Virus record (IMG/VR): IMGVR_UViG_2695420569_000028
Direction: 5' to 3' (one strand)
Length of the DNA stretch: 11,925 bases
Source: a virus
Taxonomy: Duplodnaviria; Heunggongvirae; Uroviricota; Caudoviricetes
The translations under genes were made by a program, and so were the position numbers. Shown piece by piece: positions 1 through 11,925 of the stretch (its first letter is position 1; every line of letters starts with the position of its first letter). The notes below the pieces were generated by a model. The model ran no database searches. It saw only the letters and a list, made by a program, of their open reading frames with translations, and had not been told where the DNA came from.

Positions 1-258
1 ATGCAAACCGTTATTTTTGGTCGTTCGGGTTGCCCTTACTGTGTGCGTGCAAAAGATCTGGCTGAGAAATTGAGCAATGAACGCGATGATTTTCAGTATC
101 AGTATGTAGATATTCGTGCGGAAGGGATCACTAAAGAAGATCTACAACAAAAGGCAGGTAAACCCGTAGAAACCGTGCCGCAGATTTTTGTCGATCAGCA
201 ACATATCGGCGGCTATACCGATTTTGCTGCATGGGTGAAAGAAAATCTGGACGCCTGA
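1..258 (+). CDS. grxA: glutaredoxin 1
   Basis: 85-aa ORF with the CPYC active-site motif (GRSGCPYCVRAK); protein recognised end to end as E. coli GrxA. Confidence 0.95.
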   Translation: MQTVIFGRSGCPYCVRAKDLAEKLSNERDDFQYQYVDIRAEGITKEDLQQKAGKPVETVPQIFVDQQHIGGYTDFAAWVKENLDA

Positions 259-267
259 TCGTCTGAC

Positions 268-300
268 AAGCCCTCGCGTTGAGGGCTTTACTGATTTTTT
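268..300 (+). terminator. putative intrinsic terminator downstream of grxA
   Basis: Inverted repeat AAGCCCTC (268-275) / GAGGGCTT (281-288) with 5-nt loop, followed by a T6 run at 295-300. The T-run is 6 nt from the stem, so not canonical; the stem overlaps the convergent ybjM stop codon. Confidence 0.45.
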
Positions 301-665
301 CTGTGCTGTGGTTTAAACAAACTACTGATAAATAAGAAACACAGTGCCCCCAGCGCACACCAGAACACCGCGCTTAGTAACCATGCCAGCTCTTGCCAGA
401 ATGAGCGCGTCGGTGAAAAAAACAGCCGCATAATGAGCATTGAACAGGGTGCCGCCAGCATTGCGCCAAATAGAGGTTTCAGGACTTCTCTACGCTGTGA
501 AAAGAAGCTGGCGACTGCTCCAGGAAGAATGAAAAATAGCAAGCCGATTTCAGGATGCCCGGCAGCCCGAAAAGCGCCTTTCATGTGCGTCGCCAGAAAA
601 AGGCACACCACAATGAAGAGGACAAAACAGCAGATTGCCCCCGCCCAACGTTGTTTATGTTTCAC
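288..665 (-). CDS. ybjM: inner-membrane protein YbjM
   Basis: 125-aa hydrophobic ORF with several predicted TM segments; recognised as E. coli YbjM; convergent with grxA as in E. coli. Confidence 0.85.
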   Translation of the reverse strand: MKHKQRWAGAICCFVLFIVVCLFLATHMKGAFRAAGHPEIGLLFFILPGAVASFFSQRREVLKPLFGAMLAAPCSMLIMRLFFSPTRSFWQELAWLLSAVFWCALGALCFLFISSLFKPQHRKNQ

Positions 666-934
666 TCGTTCCTCCTGACACTGCGTCTATCGAACACATT
701 TTTCGCCAGTGTGGCGTTCAGTAAGATAAAGCCGCTTCGCATTCCATGCTAATATAGGCCAACGCAATTCATATAGCCGTTGATACCTAATGTGATTACA
801 CTAGTAAAATATATTGTTACTTTACTATCGTTTAGGTGCGCTGAATGAATCTGCGCCCTGAATTCTGGTAAAAAACATTATCGTAAATTACCATTTCTTT
901 CAACAGCTTACTAGTAAACAAGAAGTTAGCCTCC

Positions 935-2620
935 GTGAATATAAACGTCGCCGAATTGTTAAATGGGAATTACATTCTGTTATTATTTGTGGTCCTCGCG
1001 CTTGGGCTATGTCTCGGAAAGTTACGACTTGGTTCGATCCAACTGGGTAATTCCATTGGCGTTTTAGTCGTATCGCTGTTATTAGGCCAACAACATTTCA
1101 GCATTAACACCGATGCGCTTAATCTTGGCTTTATGCTGTTTATTTTCTGCGTCGGGGTCGAAGCCGGACCGAACTTTTTTTCCATTTTTTTTCGCGATGG
1201 GAAAAATTACCTAATGTTAGCACTGGTGATGGTTGGCAGTGCGCTGGTGATCGCCTTAGGGTTAGGTAAGCTGTTTGGCTGGGATATTGGCCTGACGGCC
1301 GGTATGTTAGCAGGCTCTATGACGTCGACACCGGTTCTGGTCGGTGCTGGCGATACACTGCGTCATTCCGGCATGGAAAGCAGGCAGCTCTCACTGGCAC
1401 TGGATAATCTGAGCCTCGGGTATGCCTTAACCTATTTAATCGGTCTGGTGAGTTTGATTGTTGGTGCGCGTTACTTGCCGAAATTGCAGCATCAGGACTT
1501 ACAGACCAGCGCCCAGCAAATCGCCCGCGAACGTGGCCTGGACACTGATGCCAACCGTAAGGTTTATTTACCGGTGATCCGCGCCTATCGCGTCGGCCCG
1601 GAGCTGGTGGCCTGGACCGACGGCAAAAATCTGCGTGAACTGGGTATTTATCGACAAACCGGCTGCTACATTGAACGTATTCGACGTAACGGGATTCTGG
1701 CAAATCCAGACGGTGATGCCGTGCTACAAATGGGCGATGAAATAGCGTTGGTAGGCTATCCCGACGCCCATGCCCGACTCGATCCCAGCTTCCGTAACGG
1801 TAAAGAAGTTTTCGATCGTGACCTTCTCGACATGCGTATCGTCACTGAAGAAGTGGTCGTTAAAAACCATAACGCTGTAGGTAAACGTCTCGCACAACTG
1901 AAGTTGACCGATCACGGTTGCTTCCTTAACCGCGTCATTCGTAGCCAGATTGAGATGCCGATAGATGACAACGTCGTGCTTAACAAAGGTGACGTTTTAC
2001 AAGTCAGCGGTGATGCCCGTCGCGTAAAAACCATCGCCGATCGCATCGGCTTTATCTCGATTCACAGCCAGGTCACTGACCTGCTGGCATTTTGCGCCTT
2101 CTTTGTTATTGGGCTGATGATCGGGATGATCACCTTCCAGTTCAGCACATTCAGTTTCGGCATGGGGAACGCTGCCGGGTTGTTATTCGCCGGAATTATG
2201 CTGGGCTTTATGCGTGCTAACCACCCGACCTTCGGTTACATTCCGCAAGGTGCATTAAGCATGGTGAAAGAGTTCGGCTTGATGGTGTTTATGGCAGGCG
2301 TTGGTCTGAGCGCCGGTAGCGGTATTAATAACGGCCTGGGCGCGATTGGCGGTCAGATGTTGATTGCCGGATTAATTGTCAGTCTTGTGCCCGTGGTTAT
2401 CTGTTTCTTGTTCGGTGCTTATGTATTGCGAATGAACCGCGCACTGTTGTTCGGCGCAATGATGGGCGCACGCACCTGCGCGCCGGCAATGGAGATCATC
2501 AGTGATACAGCTCGCAGTAACATCCCTGCGCTGGGCTATGCGGGCACCTACGCAATCGCCAACGTCCTGCTGACGCTGGCAGGGACAATCATCGTCATGG
2601 TATGGCCAGGATTAGGATAA
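935..2620 (+). CDS. ybjL: putative AAE-family transporter YbjL (two membrane domains flanking TrkA-C/RCK_C-like soluble region)
   Basis: 561-aa ORF, GTG start at 935; hydrophobic N- and C-terminal halves with a soluble central region; sequence recognised as E. coli YbjL. Confidence 0.93.
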
Positions 2621-2732
2621 AACTGAAGTTGCCCTGAAAATGAAATTTTTTTGCACAACCGCAGAACTTTTCCGCAGGGCATCAGTCTTAATTAGTGCCA
2701 CTGCTTTTCTTTGATGTCCCCATTTTGTGGAG

Positions 2733-2775
2733 CCCATCAACCCCGCCATTTCGGTTCAAGGTTGATGGGTTTTTT
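2733..2775 (+). terminator. rho-independent terminator in the ybjL / prophage-end intergenic region
   Basis: Perfect 10-bp inverted repeat CCCATCAACC (2733-2742) / GGTTGATGGG (2760-2769), with extra CCG/CGG pairing inside the loop, followed by TTTTTT (2770-2775). Only the + strand has the T-run, so it terminates ybjL-direction transcription. Confidence 0.55.
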
Positions 2776-2855
2776 GTTGCCTGAAATTTATGCCGTTTAA
2801 AATCATGACGTTAGAAGCACTGTTTTTTAACGATGGCGACAAAATGGCGGCAGCG

Positions 2856-3074
2856 TCAAAGAGAGAGCGCCACCTGTCCTGATTTCATTGGATGCGGCTG
2901 AACCGGATTTGACTCTTTTGGCGTTGCAATCGAACGAACAAAAGTTTCATGGGTTACAAAAGTATGGCTGCAGTTAATATTCTGGCACTGGTTGTAACGC
3001 TCTTTGGTCAATGAAGATACCTGAAAACTGCTGCGAGTATGGGCGGCACTTCCACACAGTGGGCAAATCATCAT
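2856..3074 (-). CDS. ogr: Ogr/Delta-family zinc-finger late-gene transcription activator
   Basis: C-X2-C-X22-C-X4-C motif (CPLCGSAAHTRSSFQVSSLTKERYNQCQNINC) and KERYxQCQNxNC signature typical of P2 Ogr. The longest ORF is 83 aa (start 3107), but the internal Met at 3074 gives a 72-aa product with a GGAG Shine-Dalgarno about 10 nt upstream, matching Ogr length. Position after gene D matches P2 order. Confidence 0.85.
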   Translation of the reverse strand: MMICPLCGSAAHTRSSFQVSSLTKERYNQCQNINCSHTFVTHETFVRSIATPKESNPVQPHPMKSGQVALSL

Positions 3075-3164
3075 TTTTCGAGTTCTCCCCATTTTTGCTA
3101 AATTCACAATAATGATACCGCATTATTCCATTTTGCAAACTTAAAAGTTCTCCATTGCGAAGAA

Positions 3165-4265
3165 TCATTCCATTTCGAAATCATCAATCCTCACTTCAAG
3201 CTCCAGACTGGTTGTAAAACCGTTATCGGGGCTGACGGTATGCGTCAGAGTCGTAATGGTCCATTCCGCATCATCTATCGGTTGTTTAAAGCCACTAACT
3301 TTCACTGGCATTTCCGTGTAAAGATCTGCCCGCCCTTCCGCCAGTTGTAGCGAGAATGACGCAACGCCGCGTTGCAGGCGTTCCCACTGCATTTTCGCTG
3401 CCCGTTCAGCGTTGCTCCGGTTGGCATAAGTGCGATTAAGTACCAGCACGTTTTCATCCGTACCCACCAGGTAATCGCCCTGCTTCGCTTCCGGCTCTTT
3501 CTTCTGCTTCTTAGTTCTGCGCTTACGCTTCACCGTGGTGCTTTCTTTCTTCGCAGGTTCGCGGGTATGCAACCAGCTGGCAATTACGCCCGTGTAGGCT
3601 CCGCGATCTGCCAGGGTAAAGCGGTGACTGTCGCCGTCCTTGCGTGTGATAGTGATCACTGGCAGTGGTTTACCAGTGGCGCTTTTGCCCTGCCCCTGCC
3701 GGATGAATAACAGATTGCCATTTTTCACCGACGCGATGGCACCGTACTGTCGCGCCAGCCGCATCAGAAAACTACCGTCACTCTCATTAGTCTGGTCTAT
3801 ATGCTCCACGAGCTTATCCGACAGGTCTTTACCCAGTACCATCTTCAGCTTGTGCCGCGCGGCTATCTCCTTCACCACTTCCCCAATGGTGGTCTTGTGC
3901 CACGATTTTTCACGGCGGGTATTCAGCGTTTCCCGAAAATCAGCACTTCGCGCCCGGATAGTCAGGCGGTCCGGTGCGCCAGTGTGTTCAATCTCGTCCA
4001 CCGTGAATGCCCCTTTCGGGAAAAGCGGCTGCCCCTTCCAGCCCAGCGCCAGCGTAATGACCGCACCACGGCGCGGCAGCACGATTTTCCCGTCGGCATC
4101 GTCCAGCTCCAGATCAAGCTGGTCTGCTTCAAAGCCCCGATTGTCCGTCAGAGTCAGACTCATCAGGCGGTTATCCAGCACAGTGGTGATATCCCTACCC
4201 TCAATACTGATGCTGAATGCCGGAGTTTTGTTGCTTTTGTTAAGCAGTTCAGAGCTGAAATTCAC
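3165..4265 (-). CDS. D: P2 gpD-like tail protein (late control gene D family)
   Basis: 366-aa ORF; GTG start overlapping the U stop (GTGA); lysine/arginine-rich linker (KRKRRTKKQKK) typical of gpD; sits at the end of the FI-FII-E-T-U-D tail operon. Confidence 0.88.
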   Translation of the reverse strand: MNFSSELLNKSNKTPAFSISIEGRDITTVLDNRLMSLTLTDNRGFEADQLDLELDDADGKIVLPRRGAVITLALGWKGQPLFPKGAFTVDEIEHTGAPDRLTIRARSADFRETLNTRREKSWHKTTIGEVVKEIAARHKLKMVLGKDLSDKLVEHIDQTNESDGSFLMRLARQYGAIASVKNGNLLFIRQGQGKSATGKPLPVITITRKDGDSHRFTLADRGAYTGVIASWLHTREPAKKESTTVKRKRRTKKQKKEPEAKQGDYLVGTDENVLVLNRTYANRSNAERAAKMQWERLQRGVASFSLQLAEGRADLYTEMPVKVSGFKQPIDDAEWTITTLTHTVSPDNGFTTSLELEVRIDDFEME

Positions 4266-4747
4266 GACAGCAGCCCTCCCACCGTTTTACTGATATCGCT
4301 TAAGGCAGACGTTGCCGTTTCCTGCAGATTATTCAGTTGCGCACTGAGATCACCGAACATATCGGACAGGGATTCATCCACCCGTTTGAGCGACAGGGTG
4401 AACTCAATCCGGCGCGGCATACCGTCGCGGAAAAACTCCGTTTTAGTCTGATTCAGTCCCTCAATCACATACATGCCATAAATCGTGCCGCTGCCTTCAA
4501 TCAGGGGCCATGCTTTCCCCTGTTCTGCCATCTGCTCCAGTGCCAGCAACGACAGCCTGCCACCTGTTATCTCCGGCATAAGAACACCGGAAAGCGTCAG
4601 CATGTCGTTGTCCGGTCCCAGAAACTGCGTGGACGGACGTCGGTTTACCCGGCTGTTTGCCGCATGTCGCCAGCTGCGTTGATACTGCAGCTCCTGATAC
4701 GGCACGGTGCGCAGCATAAACACGTACAATCCCAGCACCATCATCAT
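4262..4747 (-). CDS. U: P2 gpU-like tail protein
   Basis: 161-aa ORF beginning MMMVLGLYVF, recognised as gpU family; start overlaps the T stop and stop overlaps the D start (translational coupling). Confidence 0.88.
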   Translation of the reverse strand: MMMVLGLYVFMLRTVPYQELQYQRSWRHAANSRVNRRPSTQFLGPDNDMLTLSGVLMPEITGGRLSLLALEQMAEQGKAWPLIEGSGTIYGMYVIEGLNQTKTEFFRDGMPRRIEFTLSLKRVDESLSDMFGDLSAQLNNLQETATSALSDISKTVGGLLS

Positions 4748-7700
4748 GCGTCGTATCCCCCCTGATCGCTGTAGTTACTCCTGGCTTTTGCCTTCAGCCT
4801 ACGTTCACGTTCATCAAGCTGGCGGGCCACCTCCCGCGCAATATCCTGCGCACTTTGTCCTGGCTGCGTCTGAATGATGATCTGCATCGGTGCCTCAATC
4901 CGTTGAACGGGCGGCACAGTGGCTGCACGACTCACCATCGCTTCGCCGCCTTTCGCGGGAAGTGCCAAAGGGTGCAACGGTGGAAGCTCTGCAGGCGCGG
5001 CAGCAACGCCCATCATTCCGGCAACAACGGCAGCCAGTGCAGCTGTATTTCTCCGGCTGGTCACATTTGCCGGGCCGTTAACAATTTCCGGCCCGTTTTC
5101 ACCGACGATGCCAAACTGCCCGCGCGGGATATAGCCGCCGCTGTCATACATCCCCGCAAAGCCATATCCCCATGACGGAAAACCACCCGATGGCATCATC
5201 ACTTTACCGTCTGCATTCACCGTCGCAGGTTGCTGACGCGTCACGCTTTCCGGCAGTTTCGCCTTTGCAGCCTCTTTACTGACAATGCCGAGTTTATCCA
5301 GCAACCAGGAAACGCCAGATTTCAGGGAGTCCAGCGGATGCATAACCATATTCAGCCCTTCCGCCAGTGCCTCCCCGAATCGTCGCCCCATTGCCGCTGC
5401 GCTCTGCAGTTCGGCAGAAGTCGACTTAACGGGCGTCAGCAGATCAGTAAACCAGCCCCACAGCGCCTGCACTTTGTCACCAATCCACTGGAACACAGGC
5501 TTAAGCGGTTCGAACGCTGCACTGATGGGACCTGCCGCCGCTTTGAATCCTTCCACCACGCCACCGAGAAATGCGGTGATGGGTTGCCAGTATTTCCAGA
5601 CAACCAGTGCCACACCCGCCAGTGCAGTAACCACAAGACCTATCGGACTGAGCAGAGCACCTAACAGACCAGATACGGCATACAGGGCAACGCGCAACAT
5701 CGCCAGTGGACCAGATGCCAGTACTCGCAGCACCGTGCCTGCGGCAGCCAGCCCGCCGCGTAGTGCTGCCAGTGGATTCATAAACATCACAGCAACCGCA
5801 CGTAAACCGGATAATCCAGACCGCAAAAGTGCAACCGGCGCACCTGCTACAGTTTTCAGGACATTTCCCGTCAGTGATGCCGTGCGGCGCAAAGACGACA
5901 ACGGCGCAGTAAGTAAACCTGCGGCGTTGCCCGATGAAGCAAGCCCGCGTCGCAGCAGTGCCAGTGGTGCGCCAGCCAGCCAGGACAACGCGCTGCTGGT
6001 TCGAGTTACTGCTGCCGTAACGGAAGATAACGTTTTGATACCCAACACAGAGAATCCCAGACGGATCACTGCCAGCGGCCCCAGCACTGCAGCCAGCGCC
6101 ACCGCTAAGGTGCCGAGGCCGACGGTAACCGCAGCCACAACAGCCGATGCTTTCATCAGTGTGCCTGTCAGTTCCGGGTTAGCTTCCACCCAGCGACGCA
6201 ACGCCCCCGTGACGCTTTTCACCGTGTACAGAATATCCATCAGCGGCTGGCGCAGCGTTTCGCCCAGGCTGCTGAAGGTGTTCTGCGCTCCGGTTTTGAC
6301 CAGCAACCACTGCGCAGAAAGTGAATCCTTGTTAATGTCGGATTCTTTCTGCATGGAGCCGAGCGCATCATTGCCCGCTGTCAGTTTTAACTGACGCTGC
6401 AGTTCCGGCAGGTTGTTTGCCAGTTTCGCCGCGTCATCGCCAAACTCTTTACCAAACAACATAGTCATGGCAGACAGGCGCTTGTCCTGCGGCAGCGCGT
6501 TTACCTTCTCCAGCACGCGCTGGATGGTTCCCATCGCATCCTTCGTCATCTGCTTTTCAATCACTTCAGGATTGAGTTTCAGCAGATTCATCCCTTCAAA
6601 GAAACTCTTGCTTTGCATGGTGGCAATGGACAATTCACGCACCATCGCGTTTGCTGCACTGGCTGCAACCTCTGGCGCAGCGCCCAGTGTCAGGAAGGTG
6701 GAACCCAGCGCCGCCGCTTTACGATAATCCAGACGGTCAGCCACACCGCCCAGACGTTGCATCACATCAATGATGTCTGCCCCTTTCGACATGGCGTTAT
6801 CATCCAGATAGTTCAGCGCATCACCGAGCTGTTCAATATTGCGGGTGGGGATTTTGTAGAGCTGGGCGATTTTCCCCAGACTTTCTGACAGTTCATCCGC
6901 TGGCAGCTCAAAGGCTGTTGCCGCCTTTGCTGCCGTACTGGCGAAGGCCAGCAGGTCACGTTTCTGATCTTCCCAGCTGTCGTCAGGGTTTGCGACGTTC
7001 ATGCGCGCACCACCTTCAACCAGTGCAGCGAAGTCCACCGCACCGTTTTCCATCGGCAACTGTTCGCTGGCAGCCTTGATGGCATCCTGCATTTCATAAA
7101 AACGTGCAGTGCGGTTGCCATTATCGTCACGCAGACCATTGACCTGCTTTGCCACACCTTTCATGGCATCTTCCATGCTGGTATAGCTTTTTACTGCCGC
7201 CATCACTGGCGCACCCATTGCCAGCCCTGCAGCCGTGGTGGTGGCTCCGGCACCTGCAATACGATCACGCACCTCCAGCGAACGGGCATAACTGGCACGC
7301 GCTGCATTCATCCTGCGCTGAGCTTCCCCCAGTCGCTTCAGCCGCGCCTCCTGTTTCGAAAGTTCCTGGTTATAACGTGATGTTTCACGGGCTAAACGGG
7401 CAGTTGCTCCCGCATCGTCTTTCGCAGAAATTCCCGCCCGGTACAGTTCAGCACGCACAAGCGCCGTCTGCTGCTGCAGCTTTTTCTGGCGTTCTTCCAG
7501 GCGCTGAACAGCCAGCCGTTGACGGCCCAGAGCAACAACCTGACGTTGCGAAGGCGGCCCCATCGCTCCCAGTTCCTGACTGAGCAAATTTGCACGCTGG
7601 CGGGCATAGTTCAGCCTGTCGCCTAATTTCTGATTTTCTGCCTGCAGCTTTCGGAAGCTGTCCAGACTGCTCCCGGCCTGATCAAGCTGCTTTATTGCAT

Positions 7701-7821
7701 CGCGGGATTTTTTGACAGCAGCAGCCAGTTCTCTTGAACTGGCCTGCGCAGATCGAAATGGACGGGTGAGCTTGTCAACCGCATTAAGAATGACCTGCAG
7801 ACGCAGGTTGTTATCACTCAT
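4744..7821 (-). CDS. T: tail tape measure protein (P2 gpT-like)
   Basis: 1025-aa ORF; coiled-coil-like N-terminal region, central Ala/Gly/Leu-rich hydrophobic repeat block, Gly-rich C-terminus; positioned directly after E/E' as in P2. Confidence 0.9.
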   Translation of the reverse strand: MSDNNLRLQVILNAVDKLTRPFRSAQASSRELAAAVKKSRDAIKQLDQAGSSLDSFRKLQAENQKLGDRLNYARQRANLLSQELGAMGPPSQRQVVALGRQRLAVQRLEERQKKLQQQTALVRAELYRAGISAKDDAGATARLARETSRYNQELSKQEARLKRLGEAQRRMNAARASYARSLEVRDRIAGAGATTTAAGLAMGAPVMAAVKSYTSMEDAMKGVAKQVNGLRDDNGNRTARFYEMQDAIKAASEQLPMENGAVDFAALVEGGARMNVANPDDSWEDQKRDLLAFASTAAKAATAFELPADELSESLGKIAQLYKIPTRNIEQLGDALNYLDDNAMSKGADIIDVMQRLGGVADRLDYRKAAALGSTFLTLGAAPEVAASAANAMVRELSIATMQSKSFFEGMNLLKLNPEVIEKQMTKDAMGTIQRVLEKVNALPQDKRLSAMTMLFGKEFGDDAAKLANNLPELQRQLKLTAGNDALGSMQKESDINKDSLSAQWLLVKTGAQNTFSSLGETLRQPLMDILYTVKSVTGALRRWVEANPELTGTLMKASAVVAAVTVGLGTLAVALAAVLGPLAVIRLGFSVLGIKTLSSVTAAVTRTSSALSWLAGAPLALLRRGLASSGNAAGLLTAPLSSLRRTASLTGNVLKTVAGAPVALLRSGLSGLRAVAVMFMNPLAALRGGLAAAGTVLRVLASGPLAMLRVALYAVSGLLGALLSPIGLVVTALAGVALVVWKYWQPITAFLGGVVEGFKAAAGPISAAFEPLKPVFQWIGDKVQALWGWFTDLLTPVKSTSAELQSAAAMGRRFGEALAEGLNMVMHPLDSLKSGVSWLLDKLGIVSKEAAKAKLPESVTRQQPATVNADGKVMMPSGGFPSWGYGFAGMYDSGGYIPRGQFGIVGENGPEIVNGPANVTSRRNTAALAAVVAGMMGVAAAPAELPPLHPLALPAKGGEAMVSRAATVPPVQRIEAPMQIIIQTQPGQSAQDIAREVARQLDERERRLKAKARSNYSDQGGYDA

Positions 7822-8250
7822 CGTTGGCCCCGCTTCTCTGAATCGCTTTATACCGCCATTCCAGCACTTCGGTCAGCGGCATAACGTCAGTAACGGATGG
7901 CGGCCAGTGAAAAATGGTGGCGATATCTGCCACCAGATCGTCAACCGTCAGGCTGTCGGTAAACCGGCAAGCACCGACTTCTTCAACAAAAAAGTGACAA
8001 CCTCAACCGACATGGCAGTGAGATCTGCCGGGTCCATCTCTGCAATTTCCTGTGCAGTCAGTGCCGGACTGGAGATGCGGGGGATCACGGTCATCATCGC
8101 GTTTACATCCATATCCATAATGGCCTGCAGGCGTGTACCGCGCAGCGCACCGGACTGCGGTTTACGCAGCACAATTTCGGTGATTTCTGTTTTACCGCGC
8201 TTGATGGGGGTATCCAGTTGAATGGTCTTTTCAGTCTGCTTATCGCTCAT
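7814..8250 (-). CDS. E': tail assembly chaperone gpE+E' made by programmed -1 ribosomal frameshift (about 145 aa)
   Basis: Hand translation: frame 0 reads ..V T F L L K K S..stop; after a -1 slip at T_TTT_TTG the reading continues FFVEEVGACRFTDSLTVDDLVADIATIFHWPPSVTDVMPLTEVLEWRYKAIQRSGANDE and stops at TGA (7816-7814), overlapping the T start codon (7821-7819). Predicted length is close to P2 gpE+E' (about 142 aa). Confidence 0.75.
7948..8250 (-). CDS. E: tail assembly chaperone gpE (frame-0 product)
   Basis: 100-aa ORF between FII and T; contains the slippery heptamer near its 3' end. Confidence 0.88.
   Translation of the reverse strand: MSDKQTEKTIQLDTPIKRGKTEITEIVLRKPQSGALRGTRLQAIMDMDVNAMMTVIPRISSPALTAQEIAEMDPADLTAMSVEVVTFLLKKSVLAGLPTA
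7987..7993 (-). promoter_or_regulatory. slippery heptamer T_TTT_TTG for the E/E' -1 frameshift
   Basis: Minus-strand ACT TTT TTG read in gpE frame 0 (T86-F87-L88); X_XXY_YYZ geometry; the same heptamer is used in the P2 E/E' frameshift. Confidence 0.75.
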
Positions 8251-8304
8251 TTTGCTGTCCTGTCAATTGGGTTCTGGCGCGGTATCCCGCGCCGTTCAGA
8301 TATA

Positions 8305-8820
8305 TCAGAGGCCGAGGGCGTTGCGGTGCGCTTCCATCAGGTCCACACCGTCCACAATTTCCACCATGTTGATAAGGTCCACTTCATAGAGCACCTCACC
8401 ATTGATGGTCAGCTTCGCGTAGCTGTTGGTACTGGTCACTTTGGTGGTGTTGCTTTCGCCCGTCTTCCACTCGCCGGAATCCACTTCTTTGTGACGTCCA
8501 CGCACGACAAGCTCCACGGCCTGCACTTCCCCGGTATCGTCACGCTGAATAGAGCCGGTAAAGCGCAGCTGGATGCCATCCACCGTGGCTTTACCCATCT
8601 GTTTAAACAGCAGCAATTCAGTACCACCAATGGAAAATTCTGTGTCCAGCGCACTGTCATCAAGCCCCAGATCCACATCCACCGCACCCGGCATTCCGCC
8701 GCCGCGATACTTCTCATATTTGCGGGTAAATTTCGGCAGCGTCAGCGACTCAACGATCCCCTGCCAGTTGTTCCCGTCGTTAAACAGGTTCAGGTGTTTT
8801 AATTTGCGTGGTAATGCCAT
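8305..8820 (-). CDS. FII: tail tube protein (P2 gpFII-like)
   Basis: 171-aa ORF immediately downstream of FI with a GGGGA Shine-Dalgarno in the 9-bp spacer; size and position match gpFII. Confidence 0.9.
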   Translation of the reverse strand: MALPRKLKHLNLFNDGNNWQGIVESLTLPKFTRKYEKYRGGGMPGAVDVDLGLDDSALDTEFSIGGTELLLFKQMGKATVDGIQLRFTGSIQRDDTGEVQAVELVVRGRHKEVDSGEWKTGESNTTKVTSTNSYAKLTINGEVLYEVDLINMVEIVDGVDLMEAHRNALGL

Positions 8821-8829
8821 GTTGTCCCC

Positions 8830-10002
8830 TTACGCGCTGACCTGGCTGGCGAAATTCACCAGGTACTGATCGGTGATGCGCTGACGCAGCATCAGGTTTT
8901 CAAGTGGCGGCACTGGCGTGTAGTCGTAGTCGATGGTGAGTTTTCCGGCTTTCAGCGTGTCTTTGTCGTTCACCGACTCATCCAGCCAGCAATCACCACC
9001 AATGAGATAGCCCTGACTGACCAGGCTGCGCATTTTGGCGCGGATACCTTCGATAATGTCGCGGGCCAGCGACGGGTTAAGCGGTTTATCCACCGCCCAC
9101 ATGTGTGCTTCTGCCATCGTGTCCATCAGCACCTGCGCCGTGCGGGTGTAGTTTTCGAAGGCAAAGAGCGGGTCATCACTCAGGCAGCGGGAACCCCAGA
9201 AGCGGAAACCGTCTTTACGCACAAGCGTGGTGACGTCGTTCTGGTTCAGCAGACCTGCATCGGTTGCCGGGTCCTGCAGATCCCAGAACACATCTGCAGA
9301 AATTCCGGTGACACCGTTCACGCCCACGTTGGACAGGCTTTTGTGCCATCCGGTCTGCTCGTCAATTTTGGCGCGCAGACCAAGCGCACGGGCGGTGGCA
9401 TATGCCGTTGCTTCGGCATTCAGCACCGTGTCCCAACCAGTAAAGTCAGGCCAGATCAGCATCCCTTCGCGCTGGCTGAAGTTTTCGCGGTAAGTGATCG
9501 CCTCCTGCACTGTCTTGCAGCCATACGCTGACAGGTAAGCAAATCCACGCAGGCGTTGCGCCACGCTCAGCAACTCAGTAGCTACCGCCTTGGTGTCGTG
9601 GCCTGGCACGCCGAGAATGCGCGGTTTAACGCCGAGCTGTGACTGGGCAGATAACAGGGCTTTCATACCTGTTTTTTTACCTTCAGCAGTCACTGCGCCG
9701 ATGATATTGGTCGTGGTTTCGTCTTCCGTTTCACCCTGCGGCACACGCACAACAATGGTCACGGGTTTTGCCTGGTCAGCGATGGCATCCAGCGAACGGG
9801 CCAGAGTACCTGACTCACCCGCTTTACCGCTGGCAGTCAGCACATCAGTGATCAGCACGGGTTTATTAAGAGGAAACATTTTTGCATCGGCATCATCGCC
9901 CGTGCAGACCATACCCACGATGGCGGTGCTCACCGTGGTAATAGATCGGGTGCCTTCGTTGACTTCAACAACGCGCACCCCGTGGTGGTAATCCTGAGCC
10001 AT
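8830..10002 (-). CDS. FI: contractile tail sheath protein (P2 gpFI-like)
   Basis: 390-aa ORF; AGGAGG Shine-Dalgarno 9 nt upstream of the ATG; first gene of the FI-FII-E-T-U-D block; size matches gpFI (about 396 aa). Confidence 0.9.
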
Positions 10003-10078
10003 AGTGGCGAACCTCCTGATTGGATTAGGCTTCGCCCTATGTTGAAGTGATTGTGCCTGACAAACAGCTAAGCGCAGT

Positions 10079-10096
10079 TGTGTCGTTATTCACACA
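10079..10096 (-). promoter_or_regulatory. candidate Ogr-dependent late promoter element (TGT-N12-ACA dyad) upstream of FI
   Basis: TGT (10079-10081), 12 nt, ACA (10094-10096), centred about 86 bp upstream of the FI ATG and embedded in a larger inverted repeat CGTTATT/AATAACG (10084-10104). P2 late promoters carry a TGT-N12-ACA element near -55. Confidence 0.4.
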
Positions 10097-10144
10097 AAAT
10101 AACGGTATTTGTCTGCTTGCAGGGATAATCAACATAATGCTGAT

Positions 10145-10711
10145 TCAGGGGGATTCATTGATCTTATTTGCCGGAAATTTTCTATAAATGGTAGAAACGC
10201 CTACATCAAAAATCAGTGCAATACGCTGTATTGATTCTCCGGCCTCGAGTAAACGCCCAATCTGTGCCCACTGTTCGGTGGTCAACTTAGGACGGCGTCC
10301 ACCTACTCTGCCTTTGGCACGAGCTGCAGCCAGCCCTGCCCTGGTACGTTCAACTATCAGTTCGCGTTCCATTTCAGCCAGGGCACCCATGACATGAAAA
10401 AAGAAACGGCCCATTGGGGTACTGGTATCAATACTGTCAGTCAGGCTTCTGAAATTCACACCACGCTGGCGCAACTCTTCTATCAGCGTAACAAGATGCC
10501 GCATACTGCGCCCCAACCTGTCCAGCTTCCAGACAACCAGCGTGTCTCCTGCCGATAGTGTCCTGAGTAGTTTTTTCAGCCCCGGTCTGTCGGACTTAGT
10601 GCCACTGATTTTGTCCTCAAAAATCCGCTCACATCCCGCGCAGTTCAGTGCATTACGTTGCAAATCGGTGTTCTGGTCATTTGTTGACACGCGTACATAG
10701 CCAATAAGCAT
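10145..10711 (-). CDS. serine DNA invertase, Hin/Gin/Cin/Pin (Din) family
   Basis: N-terminus MLIGYVRVSTNDQ with the catalytic Ser in the conserved position, resolvase catalytic domain motifs (LVVWKLDRLGRS, GRFFFHVMGALAEMEREL), C-terminal HTH (GESIQRIALIFDVGVSTIYRKF). Longest ORF starts 2 codons earlier (MIM-LIG, 10717); the conserved MLIG start at 10711 is preferred. Confidence 0.92.
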   Translation of the reverse strand: MLIGYVRVSTNDQNTDLQRNALNCAGCERIFEDKISGTKSDRPGLKKLLRTLSAGDTLVVWKLDRLGRSMRHLVTLIEELRQRGVNFRSLTDSIDTSTPMGRFFFHVMGALAEMERELIVERTRAGLAAARAKGRVGGRRPKLTTEQWAQIGRLLEAGESIQRIALIFDVGVSTIYRKFPANKINESP

Positions 10712-10738
10712 GATCATCCCCCTGAATAAAAACCGGAG

Positions 10739-11074
10739 ATGATGCCAGTTAGCTGGTACCTCTGCATTTTCTTAAACGTTGGTTTTGGAGAAGGTGCTAA
10801 CTGGGTTATGTTACCTGGAGGAATGATAATTCAGCGTGTTTATCTTGGATTTCCTATTGGCACCAATGCAAGACACATAACTTTCCCCCGGTCGTTTACA
10901 ACAACGAACTATTCCATCTCAATTAACTGGAATGATATCGGTACTGTAACAACTGAAACACAATCACCAGCAAATGTGGCGGTTGTTCATCAAACAAAAT
11001 CATTAACAGGGGCCAGCATCTGGCAGGCAGGTCCCGGGGGATTTAATGTGGACATTATAGCGGTGGGGTATTGA
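10739..11074 (+). CDS. promoterless tail-fibre C-terminal variable-domain cassette (inferred 'off' orientation); functional part likely 10793-11071
   Basis: ORF runs away from the invertase, begins inside the crossover site (site encodes ..FLNVGFGE..), and is rich in Gly/Thr/Asn/Ser. Its arrangement relative to the site and invertase mirrors the silent fibre cassette of the Mu G segment. First ATG is probably not a real start. Confidence 0.45.
10767..10792. promoter_or_regulatory. 26-bp Din-family crossover site (hix/gix/cix-like)
   Basis: TTTTCTTAAACG-TT-GGTTTTGGAGAA: imperfect dyad with AAAC-N4-GTTT core geometry; right half matches the recalled gix half-site GGTTTTGGATAA at 11 of 12 positions; lies 50 bp upstream of the invertase start, at the 5' boundary of the fibre cassette. 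Confidence 0.6.
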
Positions 11075-11081
11075 TATGTAA

Positions 11082-11216
11082 AAGAGGAAACATTTTTGCA
11101 TCGGCATCATCGCCCGTGCAGACCATACCCACGATGGCGGTGCTCACCGTGGTAATAGATCGGGTGCCTTCGTTGACTTCAACAACGCGCACCCCGTGGT
11201 GGTAATCCTGAGCCAT
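11082..11216 (-). pseudogene. duplicated 5' fragment of FI (first 45 codons) with its promoter and Shine-Dalgarno
   Basis: Identical to 9868-10002; the reading frame runs into the 3' end of the fibre cassette on the opposite strand instead of the FI body. Confidence 0.7.
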
Positions 11217-11292
11217 AGTGGCGAACCTCCTGATTGGATTAGGCTTCGCCCTATGTTGAAGTGATTGTGCCTGACAAACAGCTAAGCGCAGT

Positions 11293-11310
11293 TGTGTCGT
11301 TATTCACACA
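11293..11310 (-). promoter_or_regulatory. second copy of the TGT-N12-ACA late-promoter dyad (within duplicated unit)
   Basis: Identical to 10079-10096 at offset 1,214. Confidence 0.35.
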
Positions 11311-11358
11311 AAATAACGGTATTTGTCTGCTTGCAGGGATAATCAACATAATGCTGAT

Positions 11359-11925
11359 TCAGGGGGATTCATTGATCTTATTTGCCGGAAATTTTCTATA
11401 AATGGTAGAAACGCCTACATCAAAAATCAGTGCAATACGCTGTATTGATTCTCCGGCCTCGAGTAAACGCCCAATCTGTGCCCACTGTTCGGTGGTCAAC
11501 TTAGGACGGCGTCCACCTACTCTGCCTTTGGCACGAGCTGCAGCCAGCCCTGCCCTGGTACGTTCAACTATCAGTTCGCGTTCCATTTCAGCCAGGGCAC
11601 CCATGACATGAAAAAAGAAACGGCCCATTGGGGTACTGGTATCAATACTGTCAGTCAGGCTTCTGAAATTCACACCACGCTGGCGCAACTCTTCTATCAG
11701 CGTAACAAGATGCCGCATACTGCGCCCCAACCTGTCCAGCTTCCAGACAACCAGCGTGTCTCCTGCCGATAGTGTCCTGAGTAGTTTTTTCAGCCCCGGT
11801 CTGTCGGACTTAGTGCCACTGATTTTGTCCTCAAAAATCCGCTCACATCCCGCGCAGTTCAGTGCATTACGTTGCAAATCGGTGTTCTGGTCATTTGTTG
11901 ACACGCGTACATAGCCAATAAGCAT
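11359..11925 (-). CDS. serine DNA invertase, second identical copy (start codon at window edge)
   Basis: 188-aa translation identical to copy 1; the ATG of MLIG lies at 11925-11923, the last bases of the window. Confidence 0.85.
   Translation of the reverse strand: MLIGYVRVSTNDQNTDLQRNALNCAGCERIFEDKISGTKSDRPGLKKLLRTLSAGDTLVVWKLDRLGRSMRHLVTLIEELRQRGVNFRSLTDSIDTSTPMGRFFFHVMGALAEMERELIVERTRAGLAAARAKGRVGGRRPKLTTEQWAQIGRLLEAGESIQRIALIFDVGVSTIYRKFPANKINESP

Follow-up and report, generated by a model that had tools for sequence, protein, structure and literature searches.

The module that lies upstream of the tail sheath gene in the 11,925-nt stretch of DNA analysed here (the window) is very probably the invertase-proximal end of an invertible tail-fibre segment of the Pin/Gin type, carried by a P2-like prophage. 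An earlier note on this DNA had read it as a fibre-switching module resembling the Mu G segment and placed within a P2-type tail cluster, and this reading is supported by the enzyme, the crossover site, the cassette and the inversion found in relatives. The switch itself is nothing out of the ordinary: its textbook mechanism has already been described for P2-like prophages, so that the present case adds one more instance of a known system and nothing beyond that. The only unusual feature of the module is a direct duplication of 1214 bp that cuts the segment right after the silent cassette.

Host DNA occupies the left end of the window, in which grxA (1-258), ybjM (288-665) and ybjL (935-2620) are accompanied by the sRNA gene rybB (2700-2778, plus strand; Rfam RF00110, 105 bits), located between ybjL and ogr. 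Two genomes that lack the prophage, retrieved from a 42-mer holding positions 441 and 471, align to the window only up to 2791, which places the prophage end (~2791) directly against the 3' end of rybB. The same two positions carry the only SNPs that are private to the window, both synonymous. The element is a P2-like E. coli prophage beside this host sRNA gene, and the minus strand of the window contains its tail cluster, with genes in the order FI, FII, E/E', T, U, D and ogr. These calls are based on precomputed Pfam hits on identical genes in ten related loci (L002-L011), whose counterparts match the sheath, tube, Phage_TAC_7, GpE, tape measure, GpU, GPD and Ogr_Delta families, and the RefSeq gene names in the closest complete genome (S1-CAM-01-A, L001) agree with the P2-like assignment. 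The genes concerned, all on the minus strand, are D (3165-4265), U (4262-4747), the tape measure gene T (4744-7821), GpE/E' (7814-7933), E (7948-8250), FII (8305-8820) and an intact FI tail sheath gene (8830-10002), the latter identified by Pfam Phage_sheath_1 on the identical gene of the ten loci and named "phage tail sheath protein" in RefSeq. FI is located downstream of the first invertase copy and on the same strand as this 188-aa invertase gene. A pattern search placed a TGT-N12-ACA dyad (10079-10096, minus strand) some 85 nt before the start of FI, duplicated at 11293-11310, which we take to be the signature of P2 Ogr-activated late promoters, and which presumably has this function here.

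Copy 1 of the DNA invertase gene (10145-10711, minus strand) encodes a protein of 188 aa, or of 190 aa if translation starts at the alternative ATG at 10717. Pfam recognizes a Resolvase domain at residues 3-135 (180 bits) followed by HTH_7 at residues 138-181, and over residues 1-184 the protein matches structures of Mu Gin (3uj3, E=1.4e-91; 4m6f, E about 1e-91). It also matches PHROG 125 ("DNA invertase") and is identical to PinE of e14 at 155 of 180 aa (86%) and to Gin at 136 of 180 (76%), while its catalytic Ser9 sits in the motif YVRVSTNDQ, which is the same in both enzymes. Judged by its sequence, the 188-aa protein belongs to the Gin/Pin/Hin group of serine invertases. In this family, invertase dimers bound to inverted sites synapse with a Fis-bound enhancer, cleave a 2-bp core, rotate and religate the DNA (PMC3798978), and in Mu the Fis-dependent recombinational enhancer is located in the invertase gene itself (Kahmann 1985; Johnson & Simon 1985). 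Inversion in the prophage analysed here would likewise depend on Fis and an enhancer. A degenerate Fis-like 15-mer occurs at nt 71-85 of the invertase gene, a position common to gin and pinE; no second site with the same degenerate pattern was found 48 bp from it, and a search of the gene for an enhancer by nucleotide conservation and the degenerate Fis motif gave nothing beyond this hint.

The second component of the switch is a 26-bp crossover site of the pix/gix/hix type at 10767-10792, TTTTCTTAAACGTTGGTTTTGGAGAA (TTCTCCAAAACCAACGTTTAAGAAAA when read on the minus strand), which contains AAAC-N4-GTTT and has the core dinucleotide TT at 10779-10780. A dyad with this geometry just upstream of the invertase had been proposed from the sequence by the earlier note, and it is confirmed as a site that is unique in the window: at up to three mismatches the 26-mer occurs once in the window and not at all in 200 shuffles, and a scan of the 11.9 kb with the consensus TTCTCNNAAACCNNGGTTTNNGAGAA at up to six mismatches revealed no other site of the invertase type. 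Sites of this family carry conserved AAACC/GGTTT arms on either side of a 2-bp core. The window site deviates at two of the 20 specified positions of the consensus, and its dyad is imperfect, with half-sites that agree at 8 of 12 positions by our own count from the sequence. Its outer half-site points towards the invertase and its inner half-site towards the cassette, and it lies 55 nt upstream of the invertase gene when the RefSeq-style start (10711) is used, a distance that shrinks to 49 nt for the longer ORF (10717). The suggested alignment to known inversion sites, for which the reference sites were taken from Mu and K-12 sequence records, gives 24 of 26 matches to the pix site beside pinE of e14 (25 of 26 for the corresponding site of the relative L006) and 18 of 26 to Mu gixR.

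A weak terminator-like hairpin of six pairs followed by TTTATT occupies 10731-10750 on the minus strand, where it separates the crossover site from the start codon of the invertase. The RNA fold of the invertase leader is unremarkable (z = -1.7), and Rfam and tRNA scans of the interval under study (10718-11081) returned no match.

On the far side of the site lies the silent alternative fibre C-terminus, a cassette of the Sv' type that comprises 97 codons past the crossover (10781-11074, plus strand). It forms the larger part of a 111-aa ORF (10739-11074, plus strand) that runs through the site and, as had been noted before, reads away from the invertase. Residues 25-111 of this ORF span the whole of the Pfam model PF21882, Gp53-like_C, with 27.3 bits against a cut-off of 24.9; this model describes the C-terminal domain of a putative tail fibre, and the profile search called for by the earlier note thus finds fibre C-terminal similarity above the Pfam threshold. 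PHROG matches on the cassette (1396, tail fibre, and 2557) likewise belong to families of tail fibre and virion structural proteins. A further link is to an expressed protein, as the last 94 codons of the cassette are identical at 93 of 94 positions to the C-terminus of the 447-aa fibre of two relatives (L006 and L007). The cassette is a promoterless alternative C-terminus of the P2 H-type fibre, and in the orientation of the window it is silent; no promoter-like site was found on the plus strand at 10712-10780.

That the fibre-like ORF begins inside the site, as first described, holds for its fibre part, which starts at the crossover, and does not hold for its ATG, which is located 28 nt outside the site. 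The crossover falls in codon 14, which contains the TT at 10779-10780; beyond the site the ORF continues for 93 codons and a stop, matching the earlier count of about 94. RefSeq calls this ORF as a CDS ("gp53-like domain-containing protein") in many genomes, e.g., at 8140-8475 of L001, which would make it a free-standing gene translated from its own ATG. This is highly improbable: the first 13-14 codons precede the invertible segment and show no relation to fibre sequence, a GGAG abuts the ATG directly with zero spacing as read from the sequence, the plus strand at 10712-10780 is the stretch already described as being without a promoter-like site, and in the opposite orientation the same codons form the in-frame C-terminus of the 447-aa fibre. 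The RefSeq CDS, with its ATG outside the invertible segment, is probably an annotation artefact, and the 111-aa "gp53-like domain-containing protein" at this position is better read as a promoterless alternative fibre tip than as an independent gene. As the earlier note stated, the cassette is short and runs into a duplicated FI fragment. Both facts stand, although its shortness is not an anomaly, since the cassette has the same length in relatives, where it is followed by a gene for a 142-aa chaperone.

Relatives were found through the exact tape-measure protein: the prophage recurs in ten loci, and in seven of these it occupies the chromosomal site seen in the window. Each of the ten has one invertase gene and all share one layout, i.e., gene I, fibre gene H, chaperone, inverted chaperone, inverted cassette, invertase and FI, although the ORF of the inverted cassette is not always called. 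The RefSeq annotation of L001, which is 98.4% identical and has the complete architecture with a single invertase gene, displays this layout too. The order predicted by the earlier note (constant fibre part, site, variable part with its chaperone, inverted chaperone, cassette, site and invertase) is found complete in near-identical prophages. Cassettes and chaperones differ among the ten loci (L002-L011, 5600-7100), with at least four combinations and with silent cassettes of 110, 111, 133 and 163 aa. Since these combinations occur together with an identical tape measure, they indicate frequent cassette exchange at the fibre locus. The chaperones of L001 and L010 are Caudo_TAP proteins of 142 aa (117 bits) and 197 aa.

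Two side observations concern the relatives themselves. In L001, the annotation splits the fibre gene into two pseudogene pieces, ~650 nt apart (9470-10975). The prophage of L002, L005 and L008 is the same one (99.4% identical) at a different chromosomal site, adjoining smpB, and after ogr (15228-16143) these loci carry a 57-aa ORF and a reverse-transcriptase gene (RVT_1), neither of which is present in the window and which together are possibly a retron.

The direct evidence for inversion comes from four loci (L006, L007, L009 and L010) that are 99.6-99.9% identical to the window over the shared DNA and contain the complete 1.75-kb segment. In all four, the partner site is located 1746 bp away, in inverted orientation and inside the fibre gene. 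L009 and L010 have a 501-aa fibre followed by the 197-aa chaperone and a 111-aa ORF beside the invertase, which is the orientation of the window; L010 is collinear with window positions 1-11080 at 99.93%. L006 and L007 have a 447-aa fibre followed by the 142-aa chaperone, and in them the fibre gene ends, on the coding strand, with the cassette DNA of the window (10776-11080). The alignment of L010 with L006 is collinear apart from one stretch of 1751 nt, which matches at 99.66% as its reverse complement and has both breakpoints within the 26-bp sites. Orientation makes no difference to the outer half-sites, TTCTCACATACC and CGTTTAAGAAAA, and the inner half-sites, GGTTTGGGAGAA and GGTTTTGGAGAA, which differ by one base (G/T), switch sides with the orientation, as predicted for an exchange at the central dinucleotide. 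Inversion has occurred at exactly these sites between near-identical prophages, and both orientations, which had been suggested as a means of checking the proposal, exist in nature among the relatives. In the fibre, the crossover falls in codon 350 within the motif YLG(L/F)GEG, which matches NLGLGEG in StfP of e14 and NLGLQE in S of Mu. Among 5426 complete E. coli genomes searched with junction-specific queries, 81 have the silent arrangement and 19 the fibre-fused, expressed one.

Assemblies of this locus may themselves be affected by switching. Two near-clonal isolates from a dog hospital (L014, NZ_CM172035.1, 4091-8181, and L015, NZ_CM172040.1) agree at 99.98% as far as the fibre-gene site, and across the segment one of the pair has a gap-rich consensus of low quality, with 92.7% identity in direct and 83.5% in reverse orientation and with two sites whose half-sites are inconsistent. 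This garbled consensus looks like a mixed-orientation culture that was blended by the assembler. Considered as a clean clonal example of switching, these CUVET strains were rejected, as the segment consensus of CUVET23-RF4 is a low-quality chimera.

Taken together with the family mechanism, these data suggest how the switch would operate. The serine invertase would bind two 26-bp sites in inverted orientation, one at the YLG(L/F)GEG codons (346-354) of the H-type fibre gene and the other 55 nt upstream of the invertase gene. It would cut both at the central TT/AA dinucleotide, rotate the ends and rejoin them, by which the 1.75-kb segment would flip. In the relatives, the segment carries two alternative fibre C-termini, of 151 aa and of 97 aa (the Gp53-like_C cassette), each followed by its own assembly chaperone, of 197 aa and 142 aa respectively, in convergent arrangement. 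Upon inversion, the cassette would become the tip of a 447-aa fibre that replaces the 501-aa form, and the exchange of the tip would presumably change receptor specificity. By analogy with Mu and P1, and in line with a published statement that tail-fibre structures alternate in P2-like prophages (PMC4272514), the switch may alter host range. For the window's own prophage switching is predicted from these relatives, because the window lacks the partner site, the two chaperone genes and the constant part of the fibre; it contains a single site and ends 1.1 kb past it with the duplication intervening, and this copy could be cut off from its partner site.

The closest characterised system is the P segment of e14 in E. 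coli K-12 (pinE, stfP/tfaP, tfaE/stfE). The two share the gene order, an invertase that points in the same direction as the fibre gene and is 86% identical, a site beside the invertase that matches at 24 of 26 positions and lies at the same distance of 54-55 nt from the start codon, and an LGLGEG motif encoded at the crossover. Unlike e14, which is a lambdoid remnant, the host element here is the tail cluster of a P2-like myovirus; moreover, the variable cassettes differ and the segment in the window is interrupted by the duplication junction. The Mu G segment with Gin, and likewise the P1 C segment with Cin, are similar in having inverted 26-bp sites in the fibre gene and beside the invertase gene (Gin being 76% identical) and a pair of alternative fibre C-termini that each come with a dedicated chaperone. 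Compared to Mu, however, the match to gixR amounts to just 18 of 26 positions, the segment is 1.75 kb instead of about 3 kb, and the cassettes are much shorter, with 97 and 151 aa past the crossover. In P2-like prophages, invertible segments are known to alternate tail-fibre structures, and inversion of the fibre segment has been reported for such prophages of EPEC, with co-existing orientations detected by sequencing and PCR and with a three-site variant included (PMC4272514). At the P2 Z/fun hotspot, located between the fibre and tail genes, a DNA invertase with inverted neighbouring genes is frequent (bioRxiv 10.1101/2024.10.15.618418), and this survey bears out the earlier placement of the module in the Z/fun slot between the fibre genes and FI. 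By their descriptions, the P2-like loci of EPEC E2348/69 (PMC4272514) and those of the Z/fun survey resemble the present one in phage type, slot and kind of switch. A duplicated invertase-cassette unit is described in neither report.

This duplication consists of a perfect direct repeat, in which 9868-10711 equals 11082-11925 over 844 nt with no mismatch at an offset of 1214, so that the FI fragment described earlier as duplicated is real as a feature of the sequence. Copy 1, of which the window lets 9868-10711 be compared, contains FI codons 1-45 and the region upstream of FI in addition to the invertase gene; the full 1214-bp period is 9868-11081. Copy 2 (11082-11925) ends with the window, exactly at the invertase start codon, and comprises the FI' fragment (11082-11216, minus strand; FI codons 1-45), the duplicated FI upstream region (11217-11358) with its own TGT-N12-ACA dyad (11293-11310) and the whole second invertase gene (11359-11925, minus strand). 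The junction is located at 11081/11082. To its left, the alignment with L001 and L010 runs to 11080, where a remnant ATGTA (11076-11080, plus strand) marks the start of the 142-aa tail-fibre assembly chaperone; the relatives continue with ATGTACGTATGG, where the remnant in the window stops after 5 nt. The A at 11081 is templated by neither side, and from 11082 onwards the sequence is that of the FI interior (codon 45). The junction creates a 53-aa FI' fusion ORF (11055-11216) that is not on record. A 36-mer across the junction is absent from the genome, viral and metagenome contig collections searched, and a 96-nt junction query has no match covering at least 80% of its length in the 5426 complete E. 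coli genomes.

The invertase itself was considered as the origin of the junction, through recombination at a cryptic site, and rejected. The junction has no microhomology and lies 289 nt from the true crossover site, and by our own reading the two flanks offer nothing like a half-site in register with the breakpoint; the closest candidate, GGTTTATTAAGA in FI, matches at 7 of 12 positions and is 8 nt off the breakpoint. The lack of both microhomology and likeness to a crossover site implies that the invertase did not make the junction.

The repeat can be read in two main ways. One, to which we give about an even chance, is that the repeat is an assembly artefact in which contig ends, or the ends of a circular assembly overlapping by ~1.2 kb, were joined end to end without trimming, so that the real prophage would carry a single invertase gene next to a complete invertible segment of the usual kind. 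The other, which we regard as a serious possibility somewhat short of even, is that 9868-11081 was recently duplicated in tandem, which is formally equivalent to a deletion in a tandem double lysogen, and by this event the prophage would have two invertase genes, two FI upstream regions, two silent cassettes and three crossover sites, two of them direct and 1214 bp apart and the third their inverted partner in the fibre gene. The identity of both copies at all 844 comparable bases suits a join of overlapping ends and also fits a very recent event, and the repeat is cleanly head-to-tail, as a real duplication would be. The junction, without microhomology or recombination site and with one untemplated base, is what a ragged contig end would leave. 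Furthermore, it occurs in no collection searched, compared with ~100 complete genomes that have the module in single copy, and the absence of the junction from the 5426 complete E. coli genomes, together with the other points in favour of an artefact, counts against a genuine duplication. A perfect direct repeat of 844 bp or more is, in addition, unstable to homologous recombination. Assemblies are also unreliable at this locus, as illustrated by the CUVET23-RF4 consensus, which is garbled across the segment in comparison with a near-clonal relative. On the other hand, scaffolders usually put Ns at joins, and there are none here; the window was evidently cut at annotated gene boundaries, which implies that there is more of the record after 11925 and that it was taken to be continuous sequence. 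In a genuine duplication, copy 1 keeps an intact upstream region and a full-length FI, so that the tail genes would still be expressed, and three-site P2-like prophages that form four isomers have been described (PMC4272514). On balance we lean slightly towards the artefact. Invertible fibre segments are spots of assembly error, and a duplicated invertase unit at such a place calls for a check of the reads before it is interpreted.

A third reading, that a rearrangement removed the rest of the segment and left the invertase and the cassette as relics without switching, would explain why the window contains no partner site, chaperone gene or constant fibre part and why the segment is cut off at 11080. 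We judge it unlikely, as both invertase ORFs are intact and do not differ from each other, the remainder of the segment should follow copy 2 if the duplication is a simple one, and the closest relatives all have the complete segment. Under either the artefact or the duplication, the segment should continue after 11925 as far as the partner site; extrapolation from L010 predicts a further copy of the site at 11981-12006 and the inverted partner, TTCTCACATACCTTGGTTTGGGAGAA, near 13727-13752 in the fibre gene. For a simple tandem duplication, a second cassette copy would end at about 12288, and the chaperone gene would start with ATGTACGTATGG at about 12290, ahead of the convergent chaperone pair and the 151-aa variable part.

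If the duplication is real and very recent, it could represent an intermediate between a two-state switch and a multi-site system of the shufflon kind, a proposal we put forward tentatively and consider rather doubtful. Such a locus, with its two invertase genes and three sites, would be akin to the three-site P2-like locus of EPEC and would provide a small, neat example of how inversion systems gain sites and cassettes. Invertase copy 1 would then lie downstream of both the duplicated FI upstream region (11217-11358) and a promoter-like element created by the junction, either of which could raise invertase expression during late phage growth. The latter element is a σ70-like TTTACA-17-TATAAT (11 of 12 positions; 11082..11054, minus strand) whose -35 hexamer spans the junction and whose TTTACA reads CGTACA in relatives; it points through the cassette in antisense, towards invertase copy 1.
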